A stretch of DNA of 64,000 nucleotides from a virus (IMGVR_UViG_3300032291_003679:1-64000); one strand, 5' to 3'; numbered from the stretch's first letter, positions 7,921 to 44,568 are shown. Program-made: numbers and translations. Notes: generated by a model from the letters alone, not told the origin.

Positions 7921-8271
7921 TTGTCAGACGCAGACAAAAACCCCCAACAAAAATTACCCAAAAATAATGCCCAACCAGATAAATCTAACGATATACCTCC
8001 TAAGTCTTGGTTTGACCTTGCTAGTTGCAAAGGAAAAACGGAACTTATGTTTCCCAAACAACATAAGGACATCACCTATATTGCACAGGCGCGGGCAATC
8101 TGCAAAACCTGTCCAGTCAAAGCAGAGTGTTTAGAGTACGCACTGGAGTTTCCAGCGGCAGATATGCATGGGGTATGGGCAGGGCTGACTAGTAGGCAGT
8201 TAGCGGCAGAACAACGAAGACGCAAGATAAAACCAATACGACCAACGCTCGCACAGATGTGGGGAGACTAA
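7921..8271 (+). CDS. whiB: WhiB-family Fe-S transcription factor
   Basis: Four Cys (C..CxxCPVxxxC) and GVWAG motif. Confidence 0.9.
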   Translation: MSDADKNPQQKLPKNNAQPDKSNDIPPKSWFDLASCKGKTELMFPKQHKDITYIAQARAICKTCPVKAECLEYALEFPAADMHGVWAGLTSRQLAAEQRRRKIKPIRPTLAQMWGD

Positions 8272-17147: not shown

Positions 17148-17484
17148 TGTTTGCTCCTTTGTAAGCGATTGGTTAGGGACAAGCAAACCATACCACTCGT
17201 GGGTCAGACTTCCCAACTTCACTTGACACCTTGCAACACAAGGGATTTGGACTTACCTACACCTATTGTTCTGACGATTCCGTGCCACTTACCTACACCT
17301 CTTATGTGTGGTCTGTGCGTTCCGAGCCACCTGCCGTGCGCCCCAACGCCGAGCCAGCCCTTACCTGCCCTGCCACCCCGAGTGCCTGCGCCTTCTTCGG
17401 GTGGAGCCCCGCGTTGTTCGGCGAGTCGGGCGGGGCTTAGGCCGACTTACCTACACCTAATGGGGACTTACCTACACCTAATGG

Positions 17485-18674: not shown

Positions 18675-18681
18675 GACTTAC

Positions 18682-19377
18682 CTACACCCCCTTGTCTTTC
18701 TTTTTCGGAGCCTTGTCAAGCATGTCTTTGTAAGCAAGCGTCTTGGTGGCAAGGTGCATGTAGCCAACCGTGGCAAGTAAAGCGTCAGGAATACGACCAT
18801 TTGTTTCATGCTCTTTGTCCACTGTGAATGTGTTGCACATTGGTTCTTCGTCAAACTCGGGAACTCCGTGGTCGTCATAGCGATAGAGGCTCGCAATGCT
18901 CCACACATTCGTAGCGTTCCAATCCACGGCAGTCATTATGATTCCTTCACGAACATCAGAAAATGGATTTTCTTTGTAGTCCTTCTCAAAGTCGCCTCTG
19001 TCGTGGTTATGTGCCTCTTCTTCGGTCATCTCTGACTTTGCGTATCCCTCAACGAGTAGAACAATAAAGTCAAACGGACGAATCGGGAGTGACTTCACAA
19101 CATCTTCGTAAGCGTCAAAAATGTCCTCTTTGTGAATGAGAGGAATCATCGCCAAGTGGTATGGCTTTGAGAGTGAGAACTCATGTTGGTAGTCCACGCA
19201 TGCTTCGTGGTCGGGATTACTGTCATTGCTCTCAACGGCAACAAGGAACAGTGGTGGACTGTCTTGCATTGGCTCGTCTTTGCACATTTCTGTCTTTGCA
19301 AAGACGGCTCGGTTGAGCAAATCTTCCATTATTGCTCTGATGTCGTTGTCAATAACTTCATTCTCTTGTGGTGTCAT
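18682..19377 (-). CDS. hypothetical protein
   Basis: GAAAGGGG RBS; own promoter; stop codon lies inside a 14-mer. Confidence 0.75.
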   Translation of the reverse strand: MTPQENEVIDNDIRAIMEDLLNRAVFAKTEMCKDEPMQDSPPLFLVAVESNDSNPDHEACVDYQHEFSLSKPYHLAMIPLIHKEDIFDAYEDVVKSLPIRPFDFIVLLVEGYAKSEMTEEEAHNHDRGDFEKDYKENPFSDVREGIIMTAVDWNATNVWSIASLYRYDDHGVPEFDEEPMCNTFTVDKEHETNGRIPDALLATVGYMHLATKTLAYKDMLDKAPKKKDKGV

Positions 19378-19499: not shown

Positions 19500-19724
19500 C
19501 TACTTCTCTCCGAGCAGTGTGTTCACCGATACTCCAAGAGCATTACTTACAGCGAGCAGTGTTTCCACACTCGGCGTGAACTGCCCATTCTCAATACGGT
19601 TCACCGTTTTTCGGTCAAGACCTGCACGGTTGGCAAGTTCCAACTGTGACCAGCCGTTCTCGCTTCTGTGAACTCGTACGATTTCTGAGATTTGCTCAAT
19701 GGATTTAGTTGATGATGTTCCCAT
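19500..19724 (-). CDS. XRE/Cro-C1 HTH transcription regulator
   Basis: WSQLELANRAGLDRKTVNRIENGQFTPSVETLLAVSNAL. Confidence 0.9.
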   Translation of the reverse strand: MGTSSTKSIEQISEIVRVHRSENGWSQLELANRAGLDRKTVNRIENGQFTPSVETLLAVSNALGVSVNTLLGEK

Positions 19725-20528: not shown

Positions 20529-20811
20529 TTGATTTTCCTTTCGGTTTGGTAGATACACAGAGCGTACCACCCTCGGGACAAACTTCCCCGAGTTACCTAC
20601 ACCTCTCTTCCACCACCGTCAAAGGGTTTAGTGGGGTGGGCTACCTGCTGCGCCCCCCGTCACGCGAGACCTCTTGCCCCCGACCCCGACTTGCCTGCCG
20701 AGCACCCCCAACTGCCTGCTCGTGCTGGAGCCCCGGCCGACTCGGAGCATGCGGGGCTTCTTGTCAAAGTATCCAATCGGATACTTTTTGTGCTGGAAAA
20801 GTTACCTACAC

Positions 20812-22093: not shown

Positions 22094-22460
22094 GATTTCC
22101 CTTTCGCATTGGCTTCGCCATCACAGTACCACACAGGGGACAGACTTCCCAAAGCACAGAGTTACCTACACCCACACGGTCTTCCACCACCGTCATTGTG
22201 TTGAGAGATACCTGCTGCGCCCACCCGTTGTTTTTTCATTTTTTTGTTTTTTCAGTTTTTTCGGGTTACCTGCTGCGCACCCCCACGCGTTCCAGCGACT
22301 GCTTCCCGAGGAAGCCCCGGCCCGATTCGTGGTCCGATTCGTAGCGGGGCTCCTACTCCAAAGCCCGACTCGGGAGTCACTTATCTAGCCGTGACCCGAG
22401 AGTTACCTACACCTATCCCCCCTCGCCCAACCGAGACGAGAGAGAACAGGTGTAGGTAAG

Positions 22461-23227: not shown

Positions 23228-23558
23228 TGCTAACCCCTTTCAGGTTGTGTATTGGTGGCGACCACAGCGTACCACTAGTGGTTCAGACTTCCACCCGAGA
23301 CTTACCTACACCTGTTGCGCAGGCTTGCGAAACCTACCTGCCGAGCACACCCGTGTTCTCTCCTCCCCCCTGCTGGGGGTGGGAGCCCCGTCTGTGGTCG
23401 GGCATCGGGCGGGGCTTCTGCCCCCAACCCTCGCCCCTCGGTGGAGTTACCTACACCTAACCCAACGCCTGAACCCCCTTGCGCCTCTCGGACACTCGGG
23501 GGCTGATAGGTGTAGGTAAGTGGGGGAGACTTACCTACACCCTTTCAGGCTCGGTTGG

Positions 23559-23960: not shown

Positions 23961-24524
23961 TTGGACACCCTTTCAGTGGTAGATGAACGCCACACGCCGT
24001 GTTGCTTGTGGCTTGCCACAAGCATACACCCCCTCGGTCAGACTTTCCAACTTCGCTTGACGGACTTACCTACACCTAATCCGAGTTCCCCTTCCAGCCA
24101 GCACCTCTCGGATAGATTTACCTGCTATGCCCACCCGTGTTGCGCCCCCTTCCCTTTGGTCGGGTGGAGCCCCGCAGGTTTGTGGTCTAGGCCGGGGCTC
24201 CTGCCCCACAAGTGGTTCGGCAACACAGTCGGGGAAGCACGGCAGGTAATGGAGATTTATGTGTGGGATTACACGGGTCGGCTTGCTCGGATACGGCAAC
24301 TGACTGATGAGGCAAACAGGCTGACTGCTCTTGTTCGTGAAGCGAACGACAACACTCGTGCGAGCCTTCGCAGGGGGGAGTTCAGAGTTACCTACACCAC
24401 CTCTGCCGACCCTCTGCCTGAATAGGTGTAGGTAAGTCCAAGGACAAGAGAAAGGGGCTGACTCGCCTTCTTGGCAAGCCAGCCCCTCTCGGGTGAAGTC
24501 CCCTGTTGAGGTAGGGAAAGGGGA

Positions 24525-24968
24525 TTAGAGGTACTTCACCACGCTGTGATAAGTGCTTGTGGACACAACCTCTTGGTCGCTCATCTCCAACACTCGGATA
24601 GCGTTCTCCAACGCTTCCTTGTCGTTCTTGTATTCCCATTCACGGTATGTCTCAGGGCTTTCAGGCTGTTGTGCGAGCAGAGCCTTCGGAAGGGACACGG
24701 TGAGTTCTACGACTTCGTGAGTGTCGGGAACGGTGTTTCGGTGATAACCGACAATGGTGACATTGACAGGCTTCGCTTTGCCGTTCTTGACAGAAGCGAT
24801 TACTGCCTTCTCAAAGTCTGCTTTCCACTTGTCGTAAGCCTTCTTGTGGTCGGCTTCTTTCTTGTCGTTGTTGGCGAAGCGTTCCTCACGCTCTGCCAAT
24901 GCTTTACGCAAGGCTGTAAGCAGAACGCTCACTTTCACCTTGACGCTGATGTTGCTGTTTCGTGCCAT
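24525..24968 (-). CDS. hypothetical protein
   Basis: Start MARNSN after GAAAGGG; own promoter. Confidence 0.7.
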   Translation of the reverse strand: MARNSNISVKVKVSVLLTALRKALAEREERFANNDKKEADHKKAYDKWKADFEKAVIASVKNGKAKPVNVTIVGYHRNTVPDTHEVVELTVSLPKALLAQQPESPETYREWEYKNDKEALENAIRVLEMSDQEVVSTSTYHSVVKYL

Positions 24969-25056
24969 TGGTTTCCCTTTCGGTTGGAGTTGTAGGCACA
25001 CGAACAGTACCACTCGTGGTTCAGACTTCCGAGAGTTACCTACACCTAGATAGTAA

Positions 25057-25090
25057 GAAGCCCCCGTCAGGGGGGACTGACAGGGGCTTC
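25057..25090 (-). terminator. hairpin downstream of 25117-25587
   Basis: GAAGCCCC(C)GTCAG..CTGAC(A)GGGGCTTC stem. Confidence 0.5.
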
Positions 25091-25116
25091 CGACTTGGGG
25101 GAACTAGGACTGTGCG

Positions 25117-25587
25117 CTAGTTGCTCTTGGTTGCGCCTGACTGTACGAACTGCTGGATTGCGTTAGCGAGTGAACCACTTGCGCTACCTTCGTCAGTAAT
25201 CACATTATTTGGCTCGTCAGCGAAACGCAAGACGCTGGCAACGCTTTGACGGTTGGCGATACAGGCAAGACGAACACGCCTGCGCTGTGGGTGCTGTGAA
25301 GGTGCGCCTTCCACTTCGCCATTCTCACCAAGTGGGGAAGCCCAACCTGTCGTGACGATAAGTGTCCAAGCGTATGCGCTTGCTACCAATGCGTTGTAGT
25401 CATTGTCAAGCAGGTCATACACATCAGTATGAGACTCAATGAACACAAGTTTCGGTGCGCCTTCGGGGGTGTAATCCACGCCGTAAAGGTATGCGCCTTC
25501 TAAGGCGAACGGATTAGACTCGTCACCCTTTGAGAGTAGAGAATGTATCTCTGCCTCTATCTGTTCTGCTATTGCTACTGTGTCCAT
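25117..25587 (-). CDS. hypothetical protein
   Basis: GAAAGGG RBS; own promoter. Confidence 0.7.
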   Translation of the reverse strand: MDTVAIAEQIEAEIHSLLSKGDESNPFALEGAYLYGVDYTPEGAPKLVFIESHTDVYDLLDNDYNALVASAYAWTLIVTTGWASPLGENGEVEGAPSQHPQRRRVRLACIANRQSVASVLRFADEPNNVITDEGSASGSLANAIQQFVQSGATKSN

Positions 25588-25953
25588 TGGATACCCTTTC
25601 GGTTGGTTGTTAGTGGAACACCGTCAGCGTACCACGCTTAGTACAAACTTCCCGACTTACCTACACCTGTCAGGTCGCTTTCCACCACCGTCATTCATTT
25701 GAGGGGGTGTGCTGTTCCTCTCAAACGCCCTGACCTGCCTGCCGTACCCACCCGTGTTCCCACCCCGATAGTTGCGCTCGCAACCATCTTGGGCGTGGGA
25801 GCCCCGGCCTTTCCGAGCGTAGCGGGGCTCCTGCCCCGAAACCAGCCGAGTAGTGAATAGGTCGGGGACTTACCTACACCTCACATGAAAGGGGGGTGTG
25901 AGGTGTAGGTATCCCGAACGCCTAGCCCTGTGGGGTGGTGGGGCTAGGCGAGG

Positions 25954-26244
25954 CTAGGGGCGAGGCGAGGCTACGGGCAGGTGAATGGTCTGCCATGTGT
26001 CTAGGGTCGTGCCGTACATGTCCACGAGCGTGTCAATAACGGCAGACACCTCACCCGAACAATGACGGTGAGCAATGTCCCAGAACGTGTCTCCACTTTC
26101 CACATTCACGGTGAGGGTGTCGCACGAGAATGTCGGGGGCTTGACCGTCTGACGCAGACCCCACAGACCGACCCACAGTAGAGCGATGATGAGAGGCGTG
26201 AACACCACGAAACGGCGCACGGTGTACTTACCTACACCTCTCAT
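25954..26244 (-). CDS. membrane-anchored LysM-domain protein
   Basis: TM followed by VESGDTFWDIAHRH..TIHLP. Confidence 0.75.
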   Translation of the reverse strand: MRGVGKYTVRRFVVFTPLIIALLWVGLWGLRQTVKPPTFSCDTLTVNVESGDTFWDIAHRHCSGEVSAVIDTLVDMYGTTLDTWQTIHLPVASPRP

Positions 26245-26690
26245 GCCGTTACCTCTTTGAGTGCGATGCTCTCCCATGGGAAAGCGTTGTGATAGACCGT
26301 GACATCGTGACCATTCTCGGCTCGGTCAATGCGCCGAACTTCCAGCATTGTGTCGTGAATAATGTAAAGCCATTCAGCCCACGCTAGGTCTGTGTCGTTC
26401 TGGGTGAACAGGTCGCTGTCCTCTAATGTCACATCGGTGTGGGCGTATCCGTAGCCCTCTACTAATGCGTGTTGTTCATAGAGGTTAGGAACTCCACTCT
26501 TTGTGAGTGGCTCAATCTGTGACCATGACGGCGTATCGGTGATGAGGGTCTGAACGACCTTACCTACACCATCTCGGGCTACTAGTTCTCCCAAGACATA
26601 AACCATGCGCTCGGGATAGTTGTCCCAATGGGTGTAGCGACCTTCCCACCCTTCGTTAGTTGCTCTCGCAACTATTCCTCGTGTTGCCAT
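26241..26690 (-). CDS. conserved phage hypothetical protein
   Basis: MATRGIV..YTHWDNYPE motif; own promoter. Confidence 0.75.
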   Translation of the reverse strand: MATRGIVARATNEGWEGRYTHWDNYPERMVYVLGELVARDGVGKVVQTLITDTPSWSQIEPLTKSGVPNLYEQHALVEGYGYAHTDVTLEDSDLFTQNDTDLAWAEWLYIIHDTMLEVRRIDRAENGHDVTVYHNAFPWESIALKEVTA

Positions 26691-27102
26691 TGTTGTCCCC
26701 TTTCGGTTGGTGATGTAGTGGACACCTGAACTGTACCACCACACGGACAGACTTCCGACCCGACCTACCTGCCGAACCCACCCGTGTTGAGCCCCTGCCC
26801 TGCTTGTCCGTAGGGAGCCCCGTTGCTTTGCCGATTCGTAGCGGGGCTCCCACCCCCAAGCCGACCCCTCGGTGAACGGGTTGGCTCGGCAGGTAGCTCA
26901 AACATTCTGCTATTCCCTTTGTTCCTGTTTGTGAGGAGAGAATAACGGAGTTGTCTGTGTCGCCTCTCGCCTCATTCTGTGTCGCCTCTCGCCTCATTAG
27001 GTGTAGGTAAGTCTCGGGGGCAGTCTGCTGACAACAACATACCTACACCCAATAGGTCATCCCATTAGGTGTAGGTAAGTCTCGGGGCAGGGGCAGAGAG
27101 GG

Positions 27103-27366
27103 TTAGTCTAGGCAGATACAGGTCGGGAACTCGGATGTATGACCGTTCAGGTAGCGCACATGGAGAATGGCACAGTTGCGAGTCTTTGCTAACCACAGTT
27201 GAGTGGTGTCATCCTCTGCACGAATGAACTCCGAGGTGGACTCGCTAAAGATACCCCAACCGTTGATAACGCCTTCGGGCGAGATAACGGTGACTTCGCC
27301 TACGCAATACCAAGGAGTAGGCGTAGCAGGAGTAGGGGCTGTAAGTGGTGTAAGTAACTCTGTCAT
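27103..27366 (-). CDS. hypothetical protein, leaderless
   Basis: ATG 6 nt after the -10 hexamer of the promoter at 27373. Confidence 0.6.
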   Translation of the reverse strand: MTELLTPLTAPTPATPTPWYCVGEVTVISPEGVINGWGIFSESTSEFIRAEDDTTQLWLAKTRNCAILHVRYLNGHTSEFPTCICLD

Positions 27367-27446
27367 GTCATTACCGTACCACGCTAGGTACAGACTTCCA
27401 AACAGAGTTACCTACACCCAATCGGACTTACCTACACCCAATCGGG

Positions 27447-27860
27447 CTAGCCGTAGATGAGCGTTCCGAATACGGCGAACTGAATAATCACATCGCCTGC
27501 CTCTGCGTCAATGTCAAGGTCGCAATCGCCATCGCTGTAGTAATCAAAGCCGATGTCCTGTTTCTGCGCAGAACACGCCGAGATGTATCCGTTGTAGATG
27601 TCCTGCACCGTGAGAACACGATGAACAAGGTCAGAGTCATCATCGCCATCAGGGTCAATGACTGCAACTTTCAGGAAAGGCTGGTCATCGCTGTCGGGAA
27701 TGTTGTTGTAATCCACGCCGACCCACCAATCGTATGACTCCCACACGGAGTCAATGATTGCCGAGATGAACTCCGTGCGCTCAATGAGCGTTTCAGGCTT
27801 CACGGTTGGATAGTTGCGCTCAACCAATGTGGTTGAGTCAAGTGGGGTGAGTTCGGACAT
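27447..27860 (-). CDS. conserved phage hypothetical protein
   Basis: DAEAGDVIIQFAVFGTLIYG C-terminus; GAAAGG RBS. Confidence 0.7.
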   Translation of the reverse strand: MSELTPLDSTTLVERNYPTVKPETLIERTEFISAIIDSVWESYDWWVGVDYNNIPDSDDQPFLKVAVIDPDGDDDSDLVHRVLTVQDIYNGYISACSAQKQDIGFDYYSDGDCDLDIDAEAGDVIIQFAVFGTLIYG

Positions 27861-28247
27861 TGTGTGCCTGCCTTTCGGTTGGTGGTTGCTGGCGACACCA
27901 ATGTACCACGACAGGGTCAGACTTCCCACTCGGACTTACCTACACCTGTTGGGGACAACCGAGCGAAGCGAGAGCGTCAGACACCCCCGACCTACCTGCC
28001 GAACTCCCCCGTGTTACGCCCACGAGGGGTTGGGCGTGGGAGCCCCGGTTGATTTGCGAAGTGCAACGGGGCTCCTCCCCCACGCAGGCTTTGCGCTGTG
28101 AACGGGTTGGCTCGGCAGGTAGCGCACAAGTTTATTATTTTGTTCGTTCCTTTTTGTGGGGGGCAATACGACTCGCCTACACCCAACAGGTCTCCCCGTT
28201 AGGTGTAGGTAAGTCAGAGCGCAAGTTGTCGGGAGAGTTACCTACAC

Positions 28248-28649
28248 CTATTCGTCATCGGACTCAATGACTGGAACAACAACGCTTGCACTGCCCGTAG
28301 GTGCGTCATGGTGCGACAGAGAGAACTCAATGCGTTCCGTGCCGAACACTTGGTAACGGAGAGTCCATGCTGAGTTCACGGTGATTCCCTGAACGAAGTC
28401 ACGGACATTGTTGGCAGTGAACACGCCACCAACCTCACGATTCCACAGACGGATTCCTGAAACTCGGAAAGTATCGGACTCAGCGAGAAAGTACTGAATG
28501 GAGTTCTCAAAGAATCCCAAGTCCGTTTCGTAACAGTCTCCGAAACACTCAGGCGATTCCACGAACTCATGCGTTTCCTCATCGGCAATAAGACAGGTGC
28601 AGGTGTTGGTGAGTTCACCCCATGCAGTTGGAGTTTCGGTAATGGTCAT
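28248..28649 (-). CDS. hypothetical protein
   Basis: Start MTITET after GAAAGGA; SHHDAPTG motif. Confidence 0.7.
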   Translation of the reverse strand: MTITETPTAWGELTNTCTCLIADEETHEFVESPECFGDCYETDLGFFENSIQYFLAESDTFRVSGIRLWNREVGGVFTANNVRDFVQGITVNSAWTLRYQVFGTERIEFSLSHHDAPTGSASVVVPVIESDDE

Positions 28650-28903
28650 GTCCGTTCCTTTCGGTTGGTGGTAAGGGACAGCCACAGAGTACCACGCACG
28701 GGACAGCCTTCCCGACTTACCTGCCGTGTTCCCCCGTGTTGCGCCCCCCTCTCTTGCGAGTGGGAGCCCCGTTGCTTGCCCGAGCATGGCCGGGGCTCCT
28801 GCCCCCAAGACGACCCTCGGCAAACGGGTGAGCGCAGCAGGTAGGTGAGAAACTTTCTTTTTTTTGTTTGACATTCTCACACGCAACGACACTTCTACTA
28901 AGT

Positions 28904-29209
28904 ATGACTACCTATGGTTCACACACACCCCTTCCATACACGACCAAGCCACGCCACGAGTGGACACAGCGAGACTTCTTTGATTACGAGGTGGACTCGT
29001 ATTGCCGTTGCGCTACTCGTATTCGTTATCGCTCTCGTGAGTGGCACGAGTTCACGGAACGCTTCCTGCCGTATTGCGAGGATTGGAACGGTTGTTGGGT
29101 TGCAGAGGAAGCGTGGCACGAGTTCACGCTCTATCTCACTCTCCCTGAGGGCGAGTATGTGCCTGAGGAATACCCTAAGGGCTGGCACTTCCGTAGGGGT
29201 TACGACTAA
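28904..29209 (+). CDS. hypothetical aromatic-rich protein
   Basis: ORF ends next to a reverse-orientation 14-mer. Confidence 0.55.
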   Translation: MTTYGSHTPLPYTTKPRHEWTQRDFFDYEVDSYCRCATRIRYRSREWHEFTERFLPYCEDWNGCWVAEEAWHEFTLYLTLPEGEYVPEEYPKGWHFRRGYD

Positions 29210-29285
29210 CAGGTGTAGGTAACATTCGCAATACGCCACTTACCTACACCCATTCGCAACGGAATAGGTGTAGGTAAGTCGGGGG

Positions 29286-29594
29286 TTATTCGGACTCGCA
29301 ACGCCCACACAAGTAGTCAGCACCCCAAGCGTCACCAATGTAAGTGCCGTGCTTGCAGTAGAGACTCGCTTGGTATTCAGCCTCTCGTGCTTCACGAGCC
29401 TCGTAACGCTCGTAGTAAGCGTCATAGTGCTTCTCACAGCGTGGGAACACAACGAACGCACCTGAACGGCGATAACGCACAGGCAGAGTCATGTGATACT
29501 CCACAACGCCCTCACAAGGGCTGTCCTCGTGGTGGTGGTCTAAGCAGTCCTCGTGCGTGAGTTCTACTGTTTCTTCTTCGTGGTCAATGCTCAT
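29286..29594 (-). CDS. Cys/His-rich hypothetical protein
   Basis: ATGA coupling; 14-mer before the ATG. Confidence 0.65.
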   Translation of the reverse strand: MSIDHEEETVELTHEDCLDHHHEDSPCEGVVEYHMTLPVRYRRSGAFVVFPRCEKHYDAYYERYEAREAREAEYQASLYCKHGTYIGDAWGADYLCGRCESE

Positions 29595-29791
29595 GAGTTA
29601 CCTACACTCTTTCTTAGTTGTTCAGCGTTGTATTTACGGTCACGCTCAATGCCATTCAGCACGGCGAGTATTTGCTTCTCGGATAGAACGCCTTTGCGCT
29701 CAAACTGAAACAGCAGGTTGGCGTAGAACTTGTTGCGAGTGCGATTAGCGCACAAGTAGTCATACGCTCTGTCAAGGTCAGTCAGTCTCAT
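29591..29791 (-). CDS. small hypothetical protein
   Basis: FYANLL..KGVLSEKQ motif shared with 40912-41418. Confidence 0.65.
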   Translation of the reverse strand: MRLTDLDRAYDYLCANRTRNKFYANLLFQFERKGVLSEKQILAVLNGIERDRKYNAEQLRKSVGNS

Positions 29792-29982
29792 TGTCCTGCC
29801 TCATTGGCAAGTTTTTCGGCGTATCTAATCGCCTTGTCACGGTAAAAGAATGCAACTGTGCTTTGTTGTATGTACGGTTTTTTCTCTTGCATAAGAAACT
29901 TGCCGTTGTGCTGTATGTGGTAAGTCAGTCTCATTGGACAATACAAGACTGAATAGTTACCTGCTGTGTGGATTGTTTCCAT
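29788..29982 (-). CDS. small hypothetical protein
   Basis: GAAAGGGG RBS; own promoter. Confidence 0.65.
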   Translation of the reverse strand: METIHTAGNYSVLYCPMRLTYHIQHNGKFLMQEKKPYIQQSTVAFFYRDKAIRYAEKLANEAGQ

Positions 29983-30337
29983 GTGTTTCCCCTTTCAGTT
30001 GGAACGCCCTAACTGTACCACGCACGGTTCAGGCTTCCGATAGTTACCTACACCTCTTGGGGACAAACGAGCAAAGCGAGTGCGTCAGTCTCACAGGACT
30101 GAGTCACCTGCCGACCCGACCCGTCACGCCCCCCTCTTGGGGCTACCTGCCGAACCCACCCGTGTTGCTCTCTTGGGGGTTGGGGGTGGAGCCCCGGCGT
30201 GAGCGCACAGCGCGGGGCTCTTGCCCCAAAGTCGCAGAGCCGAGAACGGGGCAGAACGGCAGGTAGGTCGGAATGTCCGATTACCCGACTTAGGCAACCT
30301 CTATACAGATGAGAGCGAAAGAGCGAAAGAAACACAG

Positions 30338-30580
30338 ATGACAAACTCGGACAGATACGACAACTCACTAAGCGTTTCCAGAGTCCTTTACGACGAACTC
30401 CGTGACGGTTTCGTGTGCGCCTTCTGCCTAGACGACTTCACCTTCTCGCAACTCCACGCGACCTTCGGTGGAGACATTCTCCCAATGCCAATACAACTCA
30501 CCAGCAAGACAGCGAGAGCGTTGGCAAGCGAGCCGTGCCTTATTTGCGACTTGTCGTGTTCACGGTTCTTAGACGACTAG
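30338..30580 (+). CDS. small Cys-containing hypothetical protein
   Basis: CxxC..CxxC; ends at a 14-mer doublet. Confidence 0.45.
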   Translation: MTNSDRYDNSLSVSRVLYDELRDGFVCAFCLDDFTFSQLHATFGGDILPMPIQLTSKTARALASEPCLICDLSCSRFLDD

Positions 30581-30659
30581 GGACAGACTTACCTACACTC
30601 ATTAGGTGTAGGTAAGTCCGAGAGTCCTAGCGTTCGCGCTAACAGGAACGCTCGCGAGC

Positions 30660-31826
30660 CTACGAAACCAGTATGCGCGCCTTGCTTGGGCGTTTGTAGA
30701 ACCCAAAGCACTCATCACGGTCTGAACGCTCAACGCTCGCCGTGAACTCGATACGGTCACCCACGCTTGGGTCAAGCGCGCTAGGTTGCGAACCCCACAC
30801 GGTAAAGCCAGAGTCGTCACGCACGGTCATGACATAGCGCGTACCAAAGTCAGTATCTTTACTGTCCACCGATACAACCTTGCCGACTATCGTCACGCGA
30901 CCCACAGGGCAGGGTACGCGAACCTCATTAGCGCGTTCTTGCTCGCGTTCAGCCTTGCGCTCGGCAGATTCGAGGTGCTTGTCATAGGCACGAGCAAGGG
31001 ACACCAGCAAGCCCATGCGCTTGCTATCGGTCACGCCAGCAAGCACCACAGAACGCAGGTTCGCGAGATAGCCACTTTCATCAGTAGTTGCGCTAATCCA
31101 CTCGATAGCCAGCACAGCGCGCTCGTAATGCTCGCTAGTGGTCTCGACTTTCTCATCGCGACCTCTTGGGCGTAGAGCGTTATCTACTCGCATACGCGTA
31201 GTAATACCTTCGACACGATTACCGTCAGCGTCAGTAGAACTACGCCAGCCATGCGCCTCGATACACGCGAACGACAGCGCGACAATGCGTGTCAGGGACT
31301 CGCTCGAACCACCACCCGATGAACGGTAGTCATCACTCCACTCGCTCAAATCGTCATCGAAAGTTTCCCACACAGCAGGCAAATCATGACCAGTAAAGTC
31401 ACGCAAGCATGACTTACCTACACGATGACTAACGCCAGCCTCATCGCGAATAACTATCGTGAACTTGCGCGCACGATTATGCCCACAATGGTCACAGGTA
31501 GCAGGTGCGTTCAGCAGGTCAGTAGGTGCGTGTTCGCGAGCGTATGGTGCAACGCTCACGATGTTGCCCGTATCGAAATGCTCAACGCTTGCTACTACTT
31601 GCCAGCCACCAGCCAACACAGGGCGTTCACCGTGAACCACATACGCGATGAACGGCTCGACACACTCGCGACCCGACTCATCAGTACGCTTCTCGATAAA
31701 TCGACGCGTAATCTCGACTACGGGTGCAGATACACCCATGCGCTGGCAACGCTTCGCTAGAACGCGCTCGCGCTCGACTAACTCGGCTTCATAGTACGCA
31801 GGAACGATAATCTCGCTAGTGGTCAT
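30660..31826 (-). CDS. conserved phage protein with Zn-binding motif and C-terminal OB-fold
   Basis: CDHC..VGKSCL; GRVTIVGKVVS..GDRIEFTASV. Confidence 0.75.
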   Translation of the reverse strand: MTTSEIIVPAYYEAELVERERVLAKRCQRMGVSAPVVEITRRFIEKRTDESGRECVEPFIAYVVHGERPVLAGGWQVVASVEHFDTGNIVSVAPYAREHAPTDLLNAPATCDHCGHNRARKFTIVIRDEAGVSHRVGKSCLRDFTGHDLPAVWETFDDDLSEWSDDYRSSGGGSSESLTRIVALSFACIEAHGWRSSTDADGNRVEGITTRMRVDNALRPRGRDEKVETTSEHYERAVLAIEWISATTDESGYLANLRSVVLAGVTDSKRMGLLVSLARAYDKHLESAERKAEREQERANEVRVPCPVGRVTIVGKVVSVDSKDTDFGTRYVMTVRDDSGFTVWGSQPSALDPSVGDRIEFTASVERSDRDECFGFYKRPSKARILVS

Positions 31827-32120
31827 GACTTCCCCTTTCAGTAGGAACACCCAAACAATACCAGCACAGGTACAGGCTTCCCGATAGAGACTTACCTACA
31901 CCTGATGCGACTTACCTACACCTCTCGGACTTACCTACACCTAATCCGTCAGCAGGCGAACGAACAACAGCGTCAGCGTCAGCACGACCTACCTGCCGAC
32001 CCCACCCGTGTCGCGCCCCCTTCTGGGGGTTTGGGGGTGGGAGCCCCGAGGAAATCGGCGAAGTGCAACGGGGCTCCTCTTTCCAGCGCTGTCCCCACCC
32101 TCGCATGGTCGGGGACTTAC

Positions 32121-32288
32121 CTACACCTTCCTCTCTCGGAGTTCTCGGTATTGCTCTGCGAGGTCTTCCATAACAACTCGGGCACATGCGCCACAGAGTT
32201 GCTGGGAGACGCCCTCACAGGTGCAGTCGGGGGGAATCGGGAACTCGCCCGAATCGTCAGGAATCGGGGTGTTGTGAATCGCTCGCAT
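32121..32288 (-). CDS. small Cys-rich protein
   Basis: AAGGAG RBS; TAATG coupling; stop lies inside a 14-mer. Confidence 0.5.
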   Translation of the reverse strand: MRAIHNTPIPDDSGEFPIPPDCTCEGVSQQLCGACARVVMEDLAEQYRELRERKV

Positions 32289-32788
32289 TAGAACGCTCCT
32301 TCCTTGTCGGCGAGGAACTCCTCGTAACGCTCTGCGTCTGTCTTGTGCTCCTCGGAGACCCACTCGTGACCGTTGGAGCAACGCCAACCAACATCAACGC
32401 CGTTACGAAGAATGGGCTCAACTTCTCCGTGACAAGGAACAATGCTCCACAAGTCGGAAGGCTGGTCGGGCTCGGGATTGCCCGAAGGGACTTCCACTTG
32501 CCAGTCGCACAGTGGAGTCCAACCAACTGAATCGCAACGGAATGTCGTTCCGTCTACTTCCACTTCATCACGAACCGAAAGCGCCGTGTGTGTTCGGTTG
32601 TCCCACAGGAGAGGCTCAATGATGTCCCACAGCGAACCGTTGTATGTGTTCGTGTCGTGGAACACTCGCTCGCAAATGGCAAGCGCTGAATCTTCCGTGT
32701 CTAGGTCAAACTCAACCGATGTGATGTATTCGTTATGAATCACTGATTCTCCGAATGCCTTCCATGTGACTTTGATGTGCTTCTTCAT
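32288..32788 (-). CDS. hypothetical protein
   Basis: Start MKKHIK after AAAGGGG; RTHTALSVRDEV. Confidence 0.7.
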   Translation of the reverse strand: MKKHIKVTWKAFGESVIHNEYITSVEFDLDTEDSALAICERVFHDTNTYNGSLWDIIEPLLWDNRTHTALSVRDEVEVDGTTFRCDSVGWTPLCDWQVEVPSGNPEPDQPSDLWSIVPCHGEVEPILRNGVDVGWRCSNGHEWVSEEHKTDAERYEEFLADKEGAF

Positions 32789-33059
32789 TGGTGTGTCCCC
32801 TTTGTTGTTGGTGGGCTGCTGCCCACAAGCAATGTACCACGCACGGTTCAGACTTCCGAGGGTTACCTGCCGTTCTCCCCCGTTTCCGTGCCGTGTGCCG
32901 AGCAGGGGAGCCCCGTCGGTTGTCGCCGACTTTCGCGGGGCTCCTGCCCCCAGCGAGAACCTCTGGCACGGGTGGGTTCGGCAGGTAAGTGTGGAAGCCT
33001 GCCCCACGAGTGGTATCGTTTGGCAGGCCAACAAGGGCCGTACCTGAAAGGGGTATCCA

Positions 33060-33680
33060 ATGAAAGTAATAGAAGTAAGCGCACGAAAGGGTGGGGTCGG
33101 CACAAGCACTGTGGCCGTATCGCTCGCCGTTGCTCTCTCGCAGGCCAAGCCCAAGAGCGTTCTGTTGGTGGACACTTCACCAAACTCGGACACATGGGCT
33201 ATCGCAGGAGCCTCTACTCCTGTCGGCCCAAAGAAGTCCAGCACCACGCTCGGAGAGCATGAACTCTTGCTCATCAAGACAGGTGGCAACACTCTCGCCA
33301 CCTTGGAACACGATGACCTGTTCTCATTTGACTTCGTCGTTATTGACGCAGGCCTTTCACCAGCCTCTCACTACTTCGGCGAGACACCATTCCGTGTGTC
33401 CGTCGTGAACAACTCGTATCTCTCGCTTCGTGCGCAGGCGTTCACAGGTGGCCTCTACGCCGATGGGATTGTGTGCGTTCATAACGACGGCTTCGTTCTG
33501 AATGAGAAAGATGTCAAGAGTGTTCTCGGTGGTCGTTTCGTTCACTACTTCGGAGTGGACAACGCTGTTGCTCGTGCGATTGACGCAGGCCTCTACGCCA
33601 CATCACGCACCAACCTGTTCGCAGATTGGACAGGCTCGTTCATACAGTTTCACGAACTCGTAGAGCCTTCCAAAGTCTGA
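33060..33680 (+). CDS. ParA/MinD/CpaE-like ATPase with degenerate Walker A
   Basis: KGGVGTST, VLLVD, DFVVIDAG. Confidence 0.8.
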   Translation: MKVIEVSARKGGVGTSTVAVSLAVALSQAKPKSVLLVDTSPNSDTWAIAGASTPVGPKKSSTTLGEHELLLIKTGGNTLATLEHDDLFSFDFVVIDAGLSPASHYFGETPFRVSVVNNSYLSLRAQAFTGGLYADGIVCVHNDGFVLNEKDVKSVLGGRFVHYFGVDNAVARAIDAGLYATSRTNLFADWTGSFIQFHELVEPSKV

Positions 33681-33969: not shown

Positions 33970-34189
33970 CCGACAGGCCGACAGACTTACCTACACCCTC
34001 ACGGCAATGGGTGTAGGTAAGTGGCTGACGGGGCACGGCTTGGGGGTGGGAGCCCCGGTGGGGGCGCTGGGCGTAGCGGGGCTTCTCCCCTCAAAAGCGT
34101 TCGTGAACACGGGTGGCACGGCAGGTGAGTCGGGAAGTCTGACCCATGGGTGGTACATTGTGTGTATCACCAACAAGAAAGGGATACCG

Positions 34190-34375: not shown

Positions 34376-34728
34376 GAGAAATGAGCGAAGCACTCACTAA
34401 CTACTGGAACGACGTAGAGGAGGCAGTCAAGGGCTCACGCCTCATCGCGTGGGACACCTGCCACAAAATCTACATCGCGATGGACGAAGAGCAGGTTGAC
34501 TGGTTCAGCGAACACTACGCCCCCAACACGTTCACGGGGACAGCGAACGAAATGCTCGCAACGCTTCGTCAGTGGTACAGCGACTCGTGCCCACTGAAGT
34601 TCATCTCAGCCGTGACCACGAACCACGAAGACCCGAACGCAGGATTTGAGAGCCTCATTCCTCAGGGTGCTGAATGGGAAGATGAAGAAGACGAAGACGA
34701 AGACGACTACGAAGACGAAGAGGTGTAG
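34372..34728 (+). CDS. hypothetical protein with acidic tail
   Basis: WDTCHKIY; stop lies inside a 14-mer. Confidence 0.7.
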   Translation: MREMSEALTNYWNDVEEAVKGSRLIAWDTCHKIYIAMDEEQVDWFSEHYAPNTFTGTANEMLATLRQWYSDSCPLKFISAVTTNHEDPNAGFESLIPQGAEWEDEEDEDEDDYEDEEV

Positions 34729-34735
34729 GTAACTC

Positions 34736-35074: not shown

Positions 35075-35270
35075 GTAAGTCCCCCACTTACCTACGCCCT
35101 CACGGCAATAGGTGTAGGTAAGTCGGCTGACGGGGTGGGAGCCCCGGCTGACGCCCTCACTTTGTTCGGTTGTCCTCGGCAGCAATGAAGGGAAGCAGGC
35201 GGGGCTCTTTGATGAAGTAAACCCCCTGACCTCTTTCGAGGGGGGGGTTACCTACACCTATCGGACTTAT

Positions 35271-35555: not shown

Positions 35556-35802
35556 TTGCTGCCCCTTTCACTTGGCTGCCATAACAGTACCACAGCAGGT
35601 ACAGACTTCCCAAGACTTACCTACACCTACTAGCAGGCGTGACCTGCACGGCTTTGACTTACCTGCTGCCCTTCCCGTGTTGTTCTCTGCGACCTCGCTC
35701 TTCTCCCCTTCGGGGAGCCCCGTTTATTTTGGTTGCTTGCAAACGGGTCAGTACGGCAGGTAGCATTTCGTCATCAAGCCACATCACCTCAAGGAGAGAA
35801 CA

Positions 35803-36126
35803 ATGGCAACACCAAAGAAGAAACCAGTCGTAAAGAAAGCTCCGGCCAAGAAAAAGCCTGCAGCCAAGAAAGCCGTAGCGAAGAAGACCCCAGCGAAGAA
35901 GACCCCAGCAAAGAAAGCTCCTGCCAAGAAGACTGCAGCCAAGAAGGCATCGCCGGCAAAGAAGGGCACGCTCCCTCGTAAGAGCGCAAAGACAACCACA
36001 AGTGCTGCAACTGCTACTTCCACGACTTCTGTCACTTCACGTGTGAAGATTATCCCCATCACCAAGACCAGCGTTACCTCCACTGTTTCGGGTGCGAAGG
36101 TTACCTACAAGGTTAAGAAAAAGTGA
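35803..36126 (+). CDS. histone H1-like / HupB-tail-like Lys-Ala-Pro DNA-binding protein
   Basis: PAKK repeats; AAGGAG RBS. Confidence 0.75.
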   Translation: MATPKKKPVVKKAPAKKKPAAKKAVAKKTPAKKTPAKKAPAKKTAAKKASPAKKGTLPRKSAKTTTSAATATSTTSVTSRVKIIPITKTSVTSTVSGAKVTYKVKKK

Positions 36127-37254: not shown

Positions 37255-39171
37255 ATGAGGTTGTACCTAGATAAGAATGAGATAGTGCTGGACTTTCCCT
37301 ACGACCAGCATCAGGTTTCCGAACTGAAGCAGATTCGTGGAGCACGGTGGGATAAGCAGACGAAGTTGTGGCGTGTACCTATTACGTCTCTTGCAGAGGC
37401 ACGTGAGTTTGCTATCAAACATGAGTTCGACGTAACAATCGACGTACTTACATTCAGTGCCCCCAAGCCACGCACCGGCACAGCGAAGGTGTACCTCGAT
37501 GAAGACATGATTGCTGTTCGTGTTCCGTACGAACGCGTCATAGTAAAAGCAGTGAAACAGATTCCGGCAGTGTCGTGGAATGCGAAGAAACATTATTGGC
37601 AGGCACCAGCGTCATCTGTTCTCAATGTAATGGAGTGGGCAGAGAAGTTCGAAGTACCCGTAGAGCCCGAAGTATCTGCGATGTCGAGCGAAGTTACTGC
37701 ACGCATGAATCAGTTCATTGAGGCATCACGCTCAACAGAGGCAGAGATAGAGATACCTACACTCCAAGGAGAACTGCTGCCATACCAGCGCGCAGGTGTT
37801 GCCTACGCATCGAGTGCCAAGCGCACATTCATTGCTGACGACATGGGATTAGGCAAGACGCTGCAATCAATAGCAACGCTCGAATACGTGTGGGATTCGT
37901 ATCCTGCTGTTGTCGTGTGTCCTCCAAGTCTTGTACTCAACTGGGTAGCAGAATGGAATCGATGGCTTCCGAACAGAAGAATCGCTCACGTGACGAACCG
38001 AAAGGATTTCCCTGAACGTGGTTCGTATGACGTCGTCATTGTTGGATACAGCAACATTGCTCATTGGGAGAAGAGACTCGCCGGCCATCGTGCTTACATC
38101 TTCGACGAGAGCCACTATGCGAAGACTCCAACTGCACAGCGCACAAAGGCAGCAGTGAAGATGGCAAAGTCTGCGCACAAAGATGGAATAGTTTTGTGCC
38201 TCACTGGAACACCCGTGACTAACCGACCAAACGAATACGCATCACAGTTAGAGATTCTCGGTCGTCTCAAAGACTTCGGAGGACTATGGGGTTTTTATCG
38301 TCGTTATTGTGCTGCGTATCAAGACAACTTTGGACAATGGAACATCAGTGGCAACTCACATCTCGATGAACTAAACGAAAGACTGCGTGGCACGTGTTAC
38401 ATACGTCGAACAAAAGACCAAGTTCTATCAGAGTTGCCACCCGTAATACATAGTCGTGTTCTTGTCGAAGGAAGCTCGACAACGATGAAAGAATACGTCA
38501 AAGCAGAGAAGGACATTCTTCTTTACATCGCAGAGAGAGCACGTCAACTCGCTCTCGAACAAGGAAAGCCATCGTATGGAGCAGCGATTGCAGCGATGAT
38601 TCGTGCAGAAGCAAATGAGCATCTTGTACGACTATCAGTACTGCGCAAAATTGCAGCAAAAGCAAAAATGGAAGTAGCAGAGGAATGGATAAATGCGCGT
38701 ATCGAGAATGGTAAGAAAGTCGTTGTCGCTGCTCACCACCGTGACATCGTTGATGAACTCGCTCGTAAATACGGCAATCTTCGAATTCAGGGTGGCATGT
38801 CGGTCGAAGAGGTGGAAGAGAATAAGCGTCGCTTTCAGACCGAGAGCGTGGAAAGCGCACCTGTCATTGTTCTTTCGATTCAGGCTGCAAAAACGGGACA
38901 CACACTAACAGCAGCAGAGGAATGTCTATTCTTGGAACTTCCGTGGACGCCTGCTGATGTTGACCAAACTTATAGTCGGCTCCATCGTCTTGGACAAAAA
39001 GGCAGCGTAACGGCGACTTACATGTTGACGTCAGGAACGATTGATGAGGAAATCTATGAAATCATCGAAGCAAAGCGTTCTGTTGTAGACGCAGCAGTCG
39101 AAGGTGGAAGTGTAGGTAACTCTGACTTGTCTACAAAGATGATTATGAGTCTGCTCGACAAACTTGCTTAG
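37255..39171 (+). CDS. SNF2-family helicase with N-terminal HARP-like repeats (SMARCAL1-like)
   Basis: DDMGLGKT, DESH, LTGTP, QTYSRLHRLGQ; two W..W HARP-like repeats; leaderless. Confidence 0.9.
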   Translation: MRLYLDKNEIVLDFPYDQHQVSELKQIRGARWDKQTKLWRVPITSLAEAREFAIKHEFDVTIDVLTFSAPKPRTGTAKVYLDEDMIAVRVPYERVIVKAVKQIPAVSWNAKKHYWQAPASSVLNVMEWAEKFEVPVEPEVSAMSSEVTARMNQFIEASRSTEAEIEIPTLQGELLPYQRAGVAYASSAKRTFIADDMGLGKTLQSIATLEYVWDSYPAVVVCPPSLVLNWVAEWNRWLPNRRIAHVTNRKDFPERGSYDVVIVGYSNIAHWEKRLAGHRAYIFDESHYAKTPTAQRTKAAVKMAKSAHKDGIVLCLTGTPVTNRPNEYASQLEILGRLKDFGGLWGFYRRYCAAYQDNFGQWNISGNSHLDELNERLRGTCYIRRTKDQVLSELPPVIHSRVLVEGSSTTMKEYVKAEKDILLYIAERARQLALEQGKPSYGAAIAAMIRAEANEHLVRLSVLRKIAAKAKMEVAEEWINARIENGKKVVVAAHHRDIVDELARKYGNLRIQGGMSVEEVEENKRRFQTESVESAPVIVLSIQAAKTGHTLTAAEECLFLELPWTPADVDQTYSRLHRLGQKGSVTATYMLTSGTIDEEIYEIIEAKRSVVDAAVEGGSVGNSDLSTKMIMSLLDKLA

Positions 39172-39673: not shown

Positions 39674-40699
39674 TTACACTGCTGACAAGAGATGGTCTTG
39701 CGCTTTTACCTTTGCTCGTGACACCCATGAATTCGCACTCATCGAAGCAAGCGCACGTTCTGTCAATGTTGCGTCACGATAGTGGTCAAGGTATTCACCA
39801 ATCGCATTGACAAGCGACCAGCCGTTATACCCATAGTTCTTTGCGTTGTTGTCATTCGCATACACGGCACGAACTAGCGCAACTACCTCTTCACGGTTCT
39901 TTTGCTGACGTTCGGTTGCATCTTTTGCTAATGGAAACACGGCGTCAAGAGTCTTGTCGAGAATAGGTGACGATGCAGGGACATTGATTGATAACAGTTG
40001 TTCTGCTGTGCGAGAGAACTCACGAGCCCATGCGCTAGAAATGTTGAGAACTTCGTTTGCCTGTTCCATTGCTCTATCTGCATTGCGTGTATGTCTTGCA
40101 GTGAATACTCGCTTCGCTGACGAAACGCCAGCAATCACTGTGTTTTTACACACGGCACGAATGCTTGTGTTTGCGAACGTGATTGCCGTCTTGCCGTCGT
40201 GACCGTTATGCACTAGCAGGTAACGCTCGATTGAGTCGTTGATACCCATGGGGTCGATGATGAGGGAACCCATGTCAATAGATGCAAAGAACTCTCGACC
40301 ATCATGCAGGACTCCACACGTATCTACAACGGCGTCTCCCCCCGATGCGCCAACGATGTCGAGCGCATAGTCAAGACATTCACGATTTTGCTGAACGACA
40401 TAGCGTGTACCAACGGTGGCGAGACCGTCGAACGAACCGTCTGCGTTCACCCGTACGGTTGCACGGGAATCGGGAACAAGAATCGTAGTGCCATCAGGCT
40501 GACGAATCGGCTCACCGGTATCGTCACATACGGCAACCCGTGTTGTCACTACGTCGAAATCTGCCTGCGCTGCTTGGAGCATTGCCTCTGCTGTTTGCAG
40601 ACCTTTCATGGCTGTACCCATTCGGTGCCACGGGATTTCTCGGTCTACATACGCCATGCGTACTGTGCCGTCTTCGTTGATTTCTAACTGATGAGCCAT
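39674..40699 (-). CDS. DUF932/DUF945-family phage/plasmid protein
   Basis: PWH.G, YVVQQN, NGHDG, IRAVCKNT, RHT, NAIGEYLDH. Confidence 0.85.
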   Translation of the reverse strand: MAHQLEINEDGTVRMAYVDREIPWHRMGTAMKGLQTAEAMLQAAQADFDVVTTRVAVCDDTGEPIRQPDGTTILVPDSRATVRVNADGSFDGLATVGTRYVVQQNRECLDYALDIVGASGGDAVVDTCGVLHDGREFFASIDMGSLIIDPMGINDSIERYLLVHNGHDGKTAITFANTSIRAVCKNTVIAGVSSAKRVFTARHTRNADRAMEQANEVLNISSAWAREFSRTAEQLLSINVPASSPILDKTLDAVFPLAKDATERQQKNREEVVALVRAVYANDNNAKNYGYNGWSLVNAIGEYLDHYRDATLTERALASMSANSWVSRAKVKAQDHLLSAV

Positions 40700-40911
40700 A
40701 GTGTCTCCGTCTCTCTATCGTGTAGATAAATCTATCTGAAAGATGTGTCGTGTAGGGGAAGTGTAGGTAAGTAGTGCGGGGCTCCCGAAGGGAGGAGGCT
40801 CACCTGTGCGCTGTGAGACGGGTGAGCACGGCAGGTGACTCGGGAAGCCTGACCCACCCGTGGTACTCTGTGGGTGTCGGGGGGAAAGTCTCCCCGACAA
40901 AGGAGTTCATC

Positions 40912-41512: not shown

Positions 41513-41672
41513 TGCCTCCGAGAGCAGAGGGCAAGCCGAGCGAAGCGAGACGGGAGAAAGCGAGGAACCAAGCGGGGCTCCTACCCCAATGACGGTGCAT
41601 GGGTGCATACACGGGTGGGCACGGCAGGTAGTCCGATTTGGAAGTCTGAACCGTTAGTGGTACATTTATGGC

Positions 41673-43139: not shown

Positions 43140-43378
43140 GATGAACCCCTTTCGTTCGGCAACACACACAGAGTACCACCGATGGAACAGACTTTCCAAA
43201 AGTGCATGATTACCTACACCTATTCGGCGCAACACTCGCACTCTATGCGAGGACAACCGAACGAAGTGAGGGCGTCAGCACCGGGGCTCCCACTCTCCAA
43301 CCATGCATAAGCACCGTGCCGAGACTTACCTACACCTAGTAGATGAGTGCCGACACGGTGAATACGCCGTGTACCGAA

Positions 43379-44083: not shown

Positions 44084-44397
44084 GACTTACCTACACCCTT
44101 GTAAGGGTATGACGGGTGTGCCCGTCGCCCCTTGTGGCGAAGTGTGGCGATTTCGTTGCGTGACCACAGCGTGAGAAGTGTGCTGACAATCGTGCCAACA
44201 ATGGTGACGAACAATCCTGCGAAAGTATCGTACGCAGTGTGACTCCAATAAGAGAGAACAACAAGGTACGCACCAAGCGTGGTCACGAGATACGAAGCCC
44301 CCGTGATGAATCGGTAGATGAATGTTGGATAGTTGTCGTCCAACCAGTTAGTAGCCCGTGCGTCTGCTCGGTCTAGTTTGTCAATAATGTTTGCCAT
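44080..44397 (-). CDS. 2-TM membrane protein
   Basis: Start MANIID after GAAAGGG; ends GVGKS. Confidence 0.65.
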   Translation of the reverse strand: MANIIDKLDRADARATNWLDDNYPTFIYRFITGASYLVTTLGAYLVVLSYWSHTAYDTFAGLFVTIVGTIVSTLLTLWSRNEIATLRHKGRRAHPSYPYKGVGKS

Positions 44398-44568
44398 GTG
44401 GATTCCCTTTCCGTTTGAGTTGGCAAGATGAGCGTACCACAGTGGGGACAGACTTTCCGACCTACCTGCCGTGCCTCCCCGATGTGGCGAGGGGTGGGAT
44501 ACTTCCCCTGCTGGGAGCCCCGTTGTTTTTGACTCTTCTGTCATAACAGACACGAGTCGGTGACTTAC

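Follow-up and report, generated by a model that had tools for sequence, protein, structure and literature searches.

A mirror-image module of 120–128 bp recurs in the window, namely, the first 64 kb (64,000 nucleotides) of IMGVR_UViG_3300032291_003679, the 158,021-bp record of an uncultured phage genome with direct terminal repeats. Positions are counted from its first letter. The closest described systems are repeat cassettes and short sites of other phages. In T4-type myoviruses, the PeSL (promoter-early stem-loop) is an intergenic cassette of approximately 100 bp that combines a host-type promoter with a GC-rich stem-loop; the stem-loop is located within or beside the promoter, and its termination activity has been demonstrated (PMC2839356, PMC4122927). 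Cluster A mycobacteriophages (L5 type) have dozens of short asymmetric sites, termed operators and stoperators, which are oriented with transcription and lie at promoters and in short intergenic gaps (PMC9283540, PMC6550527). In Cluster K mycobacteriophages and Cluster EF Microbacterium phages, start-associated sequences (SAS) are 13-mers at start codons, and the extended SAS (ESAS) are imperfect inverted repeats directly upstream of them, with 17-bp repeats, a spacer of 4–13 bp and a subcluster-specific consensus. As the departures between the ESAS repeats do not support RNA pairing, DNA-binding proteins were favored by the authors (PMC3203893, PMC7302621, PMC12699233).

The blocks of the present module were named as follows. 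S denotes the 14-mer GGTGTAGGTAAGTC and A the arm core CGGCAGGTA; B reads ACACGGG, or AACGGG in part of the arms; the pair GGAGCCCCG ... CGGGGCTCC is called H; and P stands for the promoter, GGAAGTCTG followed after 8 nt by GTGGTAYNNT. Each unit consists of the GC-rich hairpin H with a B-A site on one side or both. An arm is made of the G-rich B, a fixed 6-nt spacer and then A, is oriented away from H, and contains in its A box a variant of S. The stem of H has 9 invariant bp, usually prolonged by a run of G on one flank and of C on the opposite flank, and encloses a loop of 16–24 nt whose sequence is free even between orthologs. The distance from B to H is 25–34 nt, and the sequence of this linker is not conserved.

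On comparison with the described systems, the module most likely represents a novel form of the repeat cassettes that have been described in other phages and apparently not a new class of element. It is set apart from PeSLs, stoperators and ESAS by the bipartite B-A site, the obligatory distant hairpin, and the one- and two-armed forms that are tied to transcription geometry. As for its function, the module is most likely a putative protein-bound element, placed upstream of promoters and acting as an insulator. A DNA-level operator/insulator unit, read by a lineage-specific factor, is predicted here, tentatively.

Similar to a PeSL, the module is an intergenic composite in which an extended -10 host-type promoter and the stable H recur together. 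The repeats are numerous, occupy a part of a large myovirus genome that is rich in ORFans and changes rapidly, and coincide with the borders of insertions, deletions and replacements between relatives, as PeSLs do. However, H lies 60–110 bp upstream of the promoter and has no U-tract, and a terminator role is only a candidate here. Moreover, PeSLs have neither a lineage-specific bipartite box nor a two-armed mirror form, whereas the module has both, and the host clade and the sequences are unrelated.

S and the A arms resemble the Cluster A stoperators in their many asymmetric, transcription-oriented copies at promoters and in intergenic gaps. The site sequence differs between related phages along with a specificity factor whose existence is inferred, as in Cluster A, and both groups are, in the present case probably, actinophages. 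The G-rich B at fixed spacing, the obligatory hairpin, and the one- and two-armed forms go beyond a stoperator and are unreported in Cluster A. Unlike in Cluster A, no repressor homologue was identified, and neither integrase nor resolvase was found (no PF00589 or PF00239 match in the genome, while the control profiles did match). The likeness to ESAS is limited to a general logic, namely, lineage-specific inverted repeats that fail an RNA-pairing test. Unlike ESAS, the arms comprise 8–10 bp plus the B box, stand 112–120 bp apart around a conserved hairpin, lie upstream of promoters, and have unrelated sequences.

In integron attC sites, a variable centre is enclosed by inverted boxes in two pairs; the sites are 57–141 bp long and lie at cassette borders. 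The module shares the paired inverted boxes, the variable centre, the length range and the position at cassette borders with them. In contrast to attC, it is not accompanied by an integrase, its cassettes have their own promoters in both orientations, half sites are common, and the arms belong to a 75-copy motif family.

The host of the phage is probably an actinobacterium because the genome has two WhiB-family genes (window 8008–8199, plus strand; genome 71920–72138, minus strand) and an SNF2 helicase whose closest cultured relatives belong to Arthrobacter, Gordonia and Mycobacterium phages, at approximately 32% identity. Among cultured relatives, the phage collection contained no DNA match to the region or to any module.

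Copies of the module and their transcriptional setting

A run of small genes extends over approximately 14–47 kb, and four kinds of short repeats are almost restricted to that stretch. When 30 small open reading frames (ORFs) of this region were tested, 29 had no Pfam family above the curated cut-off. The H pair with an 18–22-nt spacer occurred in seven exact copies in the window versus none in 100 shuffles, and all its copies in the record fell within the 14–47-kb part. The pattern of arm, CCCG box and half of H gave 18 matches against zero expected by chance. These matches were on both strands at 24120–24247, 26767–26894, 27994–28120, 28719–28842, 30145–30264 and 32865–32986, and on one strand only at 17363, 23336, 31991, 40777, 41573 and 44464. 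The bipartite B-A pattern with its fixed internal spacing gave 20 matches, again against zero expected, and further detected 20643, 22210, 30106, 34109 and both arms at 35661/35743. Altogether, six complete copies of 120–128 bp, a seventh, defective copy (35661–35762) and approximately ten one-armed copies were counted. A covariance model constructed from the window copies recovered all of them, plus many in relatives. Scanning the collection with the arm only was too unspecific, as single chance matches were obtained, and the H pattern alone was found singly in many unrelated contigs; thus, only multi-copy contigs were considered informative, and further ones of this kind appeared in the H scan.

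The six complete copies had been listed in an earlier note on this stretch, made from the sequence alone, and were matched exactly; the partial copies that it named are also real. The divergence and non-complementarity of the linkers, which it had claimed, were borne out (duplex energy versus shuffles, z -1.96 to +1.06), as was its description of 32865–32986, where both arms adjoin outward GGAAG(T/C)CTG ... GTGGTAY promoters at 32834–32857 (minus) and 32993–33016 (plus). Regarding the central block, the inverted pair exists, but it is longer than the 8-mer quoted there, with a complementary flanking G-run and C-run.

The two halves of H are nearly always both present and stand at variable distance, which favors base pairing in a hairpin over a rigid protein dimer or half-sites. 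Folded as DNA, H has an energy of -12 to -19 kcal/mol. The distances between the two arms are 112, 114, 116, 119, 120 and 120 bp, and 94 bp in the defective copy; helical phasing of the arms was excluded by this variable spacing (112–120 bp). A coding role was also rejected, as the ORFs crossing some copies have no consistent frame and no consistent starts, and a loop motif or loop orientation was too weak as a strand marker.

The form of each copy follows the direction of transcription around it. Genes between approximately 33 and 17 kb are directed leftward and those between 33 and 42 kb rightward, with short rightward units interspersed. All seven two-armed copies are located where transcription or S orientation diverges, with the left arm facing the minus unit; the right arm faces plus-strand genes in five cases and only plus-oriented S in the other two. 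The two-armed copies are listed below, and orthologs are given by locus label and position.

24120–24247, two-armed; the left arm faces a minus unit (S 24066–24076, promoter box 24039–24047), and the last base of the right arm is the start of a conserved 59-aa plus-strand ORF, 24249–24427, whose ATG it adjoins; ortholog L144:13368–13506
26767–26894, two-armed; the left arm is 10 nt from promoter box 26748–26756 (minus), and on the side of the right arm lie a T-rich tract and two S in plus orientation (27000, 27068); ortholog L144:16218–16366
27994–28120, two-armed; leftward follow a conserved box, S 27936–27946 and promoter 27903–27926 (minus), and the right arm faces a T-rich tract and then plus-oriented S 28202
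28719–28842, two-armed; the left arm is 5 nt from promoter box 28704–28712 (minus), and the right arm faces a T-tract with a TTGACA-type promoter-like element, conserved in the relative, and then plus-strand ORF 28914–29222; ortholog L144:17394–17527
30145–30264, two-armed; leftward follow an extra B-A site 30106–30124, S 30044 and promoter 30015–30038 (minus), and on the right side lies a conserved plus-strand ORF at approximately 30337–30580; ortholog L144:19017–19159
32865–32986, two-armed; between the back-to-back promoters 32834–32857 (minus) and 32993–33016 (plus), the latter being of P type and leading to the ParA-like gene 33060–33680; ortholog L145:1088–1227
35661–35762, two-armed and defective, with only the left half of H; between promoter 35587–35610 (minus) and the plus-strand gene 35803–36126

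Nine of the ten one-armed copies lie between units of the same direction, and the sole exception, 40777, is at a divergent junction. They keep B-A, and the distal, direct-orientation S cannot pair with the arm. As approximately ten one-armed B-A sites have no complementary partner, the sequence itself and not its pairing is conserved, and the arms are to be regarded as recognition sites. The arm variants within the genome are one-sided (24120, 28719 and 35661).

17329–17437, minus; H with A-type boxes at a same-direction junction; ortholog L144:6519–6655
20643–20760, minus; one-armed
22210–22353, minus; two tandem A boxes with a T-rich tract between them
23336–23418, minus; the distal element is the direct-orientation S 23447–23457; ortholog L144:12559–12752, likewise one-armed
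25737–25831, minus; ortholog L144:15184–15328, likewise one-armed
31991–32077, minus; followed by three S sites and promoter box 31873–31881 (minus)
34049–34127, plus; feeds promoter 34133–34156 (plus); ortholog L145:2935–3091
40777–40837, plus, half H; feeds promoter 40843–40866 (plus), with a DUF932 gene to the left
41573–41630, plus, half H; feeds promoter 41640–41663 (plus)
44464–44522, minus, half H; adjoins promoter 44434–44457 (minus)

Several other features were observed around these copies. T-rich tracts are present 3' of right arms on the plus strand at 26895–26935, 28121–28160 and 28843–28870, and also at 22230–22266. The T-tract at 28865 runs into the TTGACA-type element; this element is conserved with the relative G001 (L144:17540–17580) and resembles a second promoter class. 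A tandem 22-nt repeat (two units) at 26947–26996 lies within a plus-strand mini-ORF of 19 codons that ends in S, and a similar mini-ORF of 18 codons is found at 28157–28214. The gene at 33060–33680 (plus), the first of the rightward unit fed by module 32865, encodes a 206-aa ParA/ParF-like P-loop ATPase; with this gene and a genome without integrase, plasmid-like carriage is conceivable. The plus-strand gene 35803–36126 encodes a Lys/Ala/Pro-rich repeat protein with a weak match to the histone H1-like HC2 family. Its coding DNA consists of tandem 15–33-nt repeats, and its product may coat DNA. A separate palindrome-like site with GTAGATAAATCTATC is located at 40716–40745, upstream of the DUF932 gene (39674–40699, minus); it is conserved in L123, L127 and L129 and includes the S core of the other lineages.

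Promoters and S sites around the module

Every copy of P has TGnTAYNNT at its end and thereby conforms to the extended -10 type of promoter (TGnTAnnnT). Its upstream 9-mer is centred near -29, the usual place of a -35 element, and has a different sequence. S or an A arm is located 3–12 nt directly upstream of this 9-mer; the arm is directly beside the promoter in only approximately 8 of approximately 25 promoters, and S is there in the rest. No sigma-70 region 2 was found in the phage genome, and no T7-type RNA polymerase either, the latter being a weak negative as the polymerase control matched nowhere. As the searches for an RNA polymerase and a sigma factor of the phage were negative, the host polymerase is likely the reader of P. 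For the same reason, S and A were rejected as promoters for a phage polymerase or sigma factor. The PafBC/RecA-NDp promoter motif is tTGTCRgtg, followed after 8 nt by TAnnnT (PMC5656591). It was also rejected, as the local box shares only GTCnG with it and lies 10 and not 8 nt from the -10 element.

S is present in approximately 75 asymmetric copies at promoters and in the gaps between genes; the copies follow the direction of transcription and are mostly sense. Antisense S pairs with sense S only at convergent gene ends, and the S pair at 27040–27077 scores as a terminator-like hairpin. Between 14331 and 46520, S often stands 0–5 nt before the ATG of genes internal to operons, and the stop codon of the preceding gene is often part of it, for example at 18678–18688, 29598–29608, 34722–34732 and 44087–44097; this placement recalls the start-associated sequences of Cluster K phages. 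In addition, a conserved box of approximately 30 nt, GACGC..CTC.CTT.G.TCGGTTGTCC, is placed after a module or half hairpin and before the S-plus-promoter that follows. This box was found near 27950–27990 (minus), 30058–30098 (minus), 35147–35180 (plus) and 43247–43282 (minus), and also in L123 and L127.

Conservation and concerted switching in related phages

A search with the SNF2 helicase yielded 21 related contigs. The complete genome G001 (156 kb) is syntenic with the window phage at approximately 75–78% nucleotide identity and shares its architecture, including the H stem and the G-rich B box. G001 has GGAGTAGATAAGTC as S and GTAGATAA as arm core, both of which differ from those of the window, while G002 uses the S sequence of the window. 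The lineage of L127 and L129 has a separate S class and a separate B-linked A class, with approximately 40 S per locus and 15–16 arm cores (GAGATAA), 13–14 of them with B at the fixed distance. Three lineages, then, have three arm sequences around one invariant H stem.

The complete or one-armed state is identical in the seven orthologous module pairs, which share approximately 75% nucleotide identity. The orthologous S sites are also kept but switched, including three in coding sequence near 15658, 26565 and 39114 (S 15653–15663, 26560–26570 and 39109–39119, each inside a long gene). The paired changes of the outer "helix" all follow the lineage, and the unpaired S sites change likewise. Judged from these alignments, the joint switching of A and S is the signature of sites that co-evolve with a predicted reader and not of a stem.

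Function of the module and competing explanations

In the preferred reading, the working part of the module would be the bipartite B-A site, whose A is a special version of the transcription-oriented S. The site points to a transcription unit and lies either right before a start codon or upstream of a host-type promoter with an extended -10, at approximately -38 to -70. We infer that a phage-encoded factor of lineage-specific specificity binds it; this factor would be the one reading the approximately 75 S sites, or its relative. B-A is always coupled, at 25–34 nt, to the hairpin-forming palindrome H. In divergent units, two B-A sites share one H and form the mirror-image module, while units of the same direction have one B-A and H. 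The likely job of such an element is to set or insulate the transcription of each small-gene cassette, with initiation controlled by the bound factor. The factor may also stall an incoming polymerase just past H, in which case the hairpin and the roadblock together would end read-through in both directions.

The distance from B to H is kept though the sequence is free, which would suit a polymerase stalled at B-A with the hairpin behind it. A narrower version of the preferred reading, possible but rather unlikely, is that the module is a factor-dependent two-way insulator, in which the roadblock replaces the U-tract and which is re-tuned by the reader and all its sites changing together. A polymerase would then pass the near arm in its non-blocking orientation, transcribe H and stop at the far B-A, 25–34 nt past the stem; the nascent hairpin behind the stalled enzyme would release it.

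Several observations weigh against the operator/insulator reading. Four further divergent junctions have no module, and in the relative, the complete module L144:14294–14428 faces no obvious second unit. As the arm at 24240–24249 adjoins an ATG, part of module 24120 is presumably transcribed. Moreover, an insulator at 32865 seems unnecessary, as no incoming transcription is predicted there. No binding protein was identified, and nearly all local ORFs have no Pfam matches. Site and S switch together between lineages, but no repressor was found, and the sole clear helix–turn–helix (HTH) protein nearby does not change with them. This 74-aa Xre-type protein is encoded in the repeat region (19500–19724, minus; HTH_3, E 1.5e-15), and it is unlikely to be the S reader because lineages that differ in S share an identical HTH motif in this protein. 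The features of an intrinsic terminator are also missing from H, whose loop is large (16–24 nt), whose 3' flanks are C-rich on both strands, and which has no U-tract on either strand. The terminator scan was silent at H and flagged canonical terminator-like hairpins apart from it, at 24450–24490 and 25061–75. As a complete module of G001 adjoins a simple terminator-like hairpin, H is not simply the terminator of the upstream gene. Finally, among the non-Watson–Crick positions of the H stem flanks (first three pairs, window and L144/L145), G-T outnumbers A-C by 23 to 7 on the plus strand, which a purely double-stranded role does not predict. The excess is independent of transcription direction and includes the plus-strand copies 34049 and L145:3008; it amounts to approximately 8 independent events and could reflect a composition bias.

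The module might instead act as RNA, which we regard as unlikely. A read-through or antisense transcript would fold into a long three-stem hairpin that acts in RNase III-like processing, in stabilizing 3' ends or in termination, with S and A also read as RNA. The same three-stem fold is indeed obtained for the whole unit in all copies and on either strand (z -2.4 to -7.6), the sense orientation of S and its frequent position just before start codons would suit such a role, as would the arm adjoining an ATG at 24240, and the G-T excess on one strand is compatible with wobble pairing. A T-rich tract also follows three modules on the plus strand, but no U-tract is beside any stem. The more stable fold is on the minus strand in three copies and on the plus strand in three, with no consistent strand preference, and the strand with the wobble-compatible excess runs antisense to most genes of the region. 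Furthermore, the arms are kept without partners in one-armed copies, the linkers do not pair, and module 32865, with divergent promoters on its two sides, falls within no predicted transcript. Covariation occurs only at the lineage switches and is common to unpaired S sites; no compensation was found within a lineage. Rfam gave no family at the gathering threshold or at E ≤ 1, save a chance microRNA match at E 0.18. The view of the earlier note that the module is not a conserved RNA is supported by these results, while the enhancer-like activation that it proposed is only a candidate role. As for the protein half-sites that the note proposed, the outer B-A blocks do behave as recognition sites, given the one-armed copies and the one-sided changes, while the central pair fits a hairpin.

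Somewhat less probable is that the repeats persist mainly as recombination joints, at which cassettes are swapped, inverted, inserted or deleted by homologous recombination, as in PeSLs, and that regulation is secondary; two-armed copies would then come from inversions crossing over in the palindromic H. Of the 29 ends of homology blocks that the window shares with G001, 11 are at most 10 nt from an S or A site, versus 2.8 expected (p < 0.0002). The cassette of gene, promoter and S at 27376–27943 has been relocated and inverted in G001 (118043–118625), and ORF 28914–29222 has been replaced behind a conserved promoter. In addition, where one module is present in G001, the window has only a simple terminator-like hairpin and a single S, and this site lies between direct S-like repeats, as if the module had been deleted between them. 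However, module positions and arm states are stable between orthologs, the shared blocks are just 8–16 bp, and a concerted switch of specificity at all sites needs selection by a reader and not mere homology. Thus, the behavior as recombination joints is real and compatible with the operator/insulator reading, which it does not replace.

A strand-specific hairpin in single-stranded DNA, or a cruciform, is very improbable. One DNA strand of H, or of the complete module, would form the fold, for instance while the DNA is replicated, and be recognized there as a priming site or hairpin promoter. The folding energy of H as DNA, the invariance of the stem across lineages, and the plus-strand G-T excess whatever the transcription direction would agree with this, although the excess comprises few independent events and could be compositional. 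Loops of 16–24 nt and open linkers of 26–31 nt disfavor extrusion from duplex DNA, and no evidence of a primase-type or N4-type polymerase was found. The cruciform platform formed by the whole module, which the earlier note offered as an alternative, is unlikely in particular, since the two non-complementary linkers would have to remain open. A selfish miniature inverted-repeat element (MITE) or an integron-type attC site, suggested by terminal inverted repeats, the 120–128-bp length, the intergenic position, and an attC-like arrangement with two boxes on either side of a variable centre, is largely refuted, as there are no target-site duplications and no tyrosine or serine recombinase in the genome, the copies are strongly diverged outside the blocks, orthologous positions are retained at approximately 75% nucleotide identity, and the half copies look functional and conserved.

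In large uncultured actinophages, tiny genes of unknown nature form long runs, and it is not understood how their switching is controlled and mutual interference avoided. The region provides a compact, testable grammar composed of S, the bipartite B-A site, the hairpin and the extended -10 promoter. The three arm sequences around one hairpin make the related phages a natural specificity-swap experiment and would be a good system for finding the reader protein. Moreover, the locus could show whether orientation-dependent roadblocks similar to the Cluster A stoperators exist outside mycobacteriophages, and in what way cassettes bounded by repeats are shuffled.

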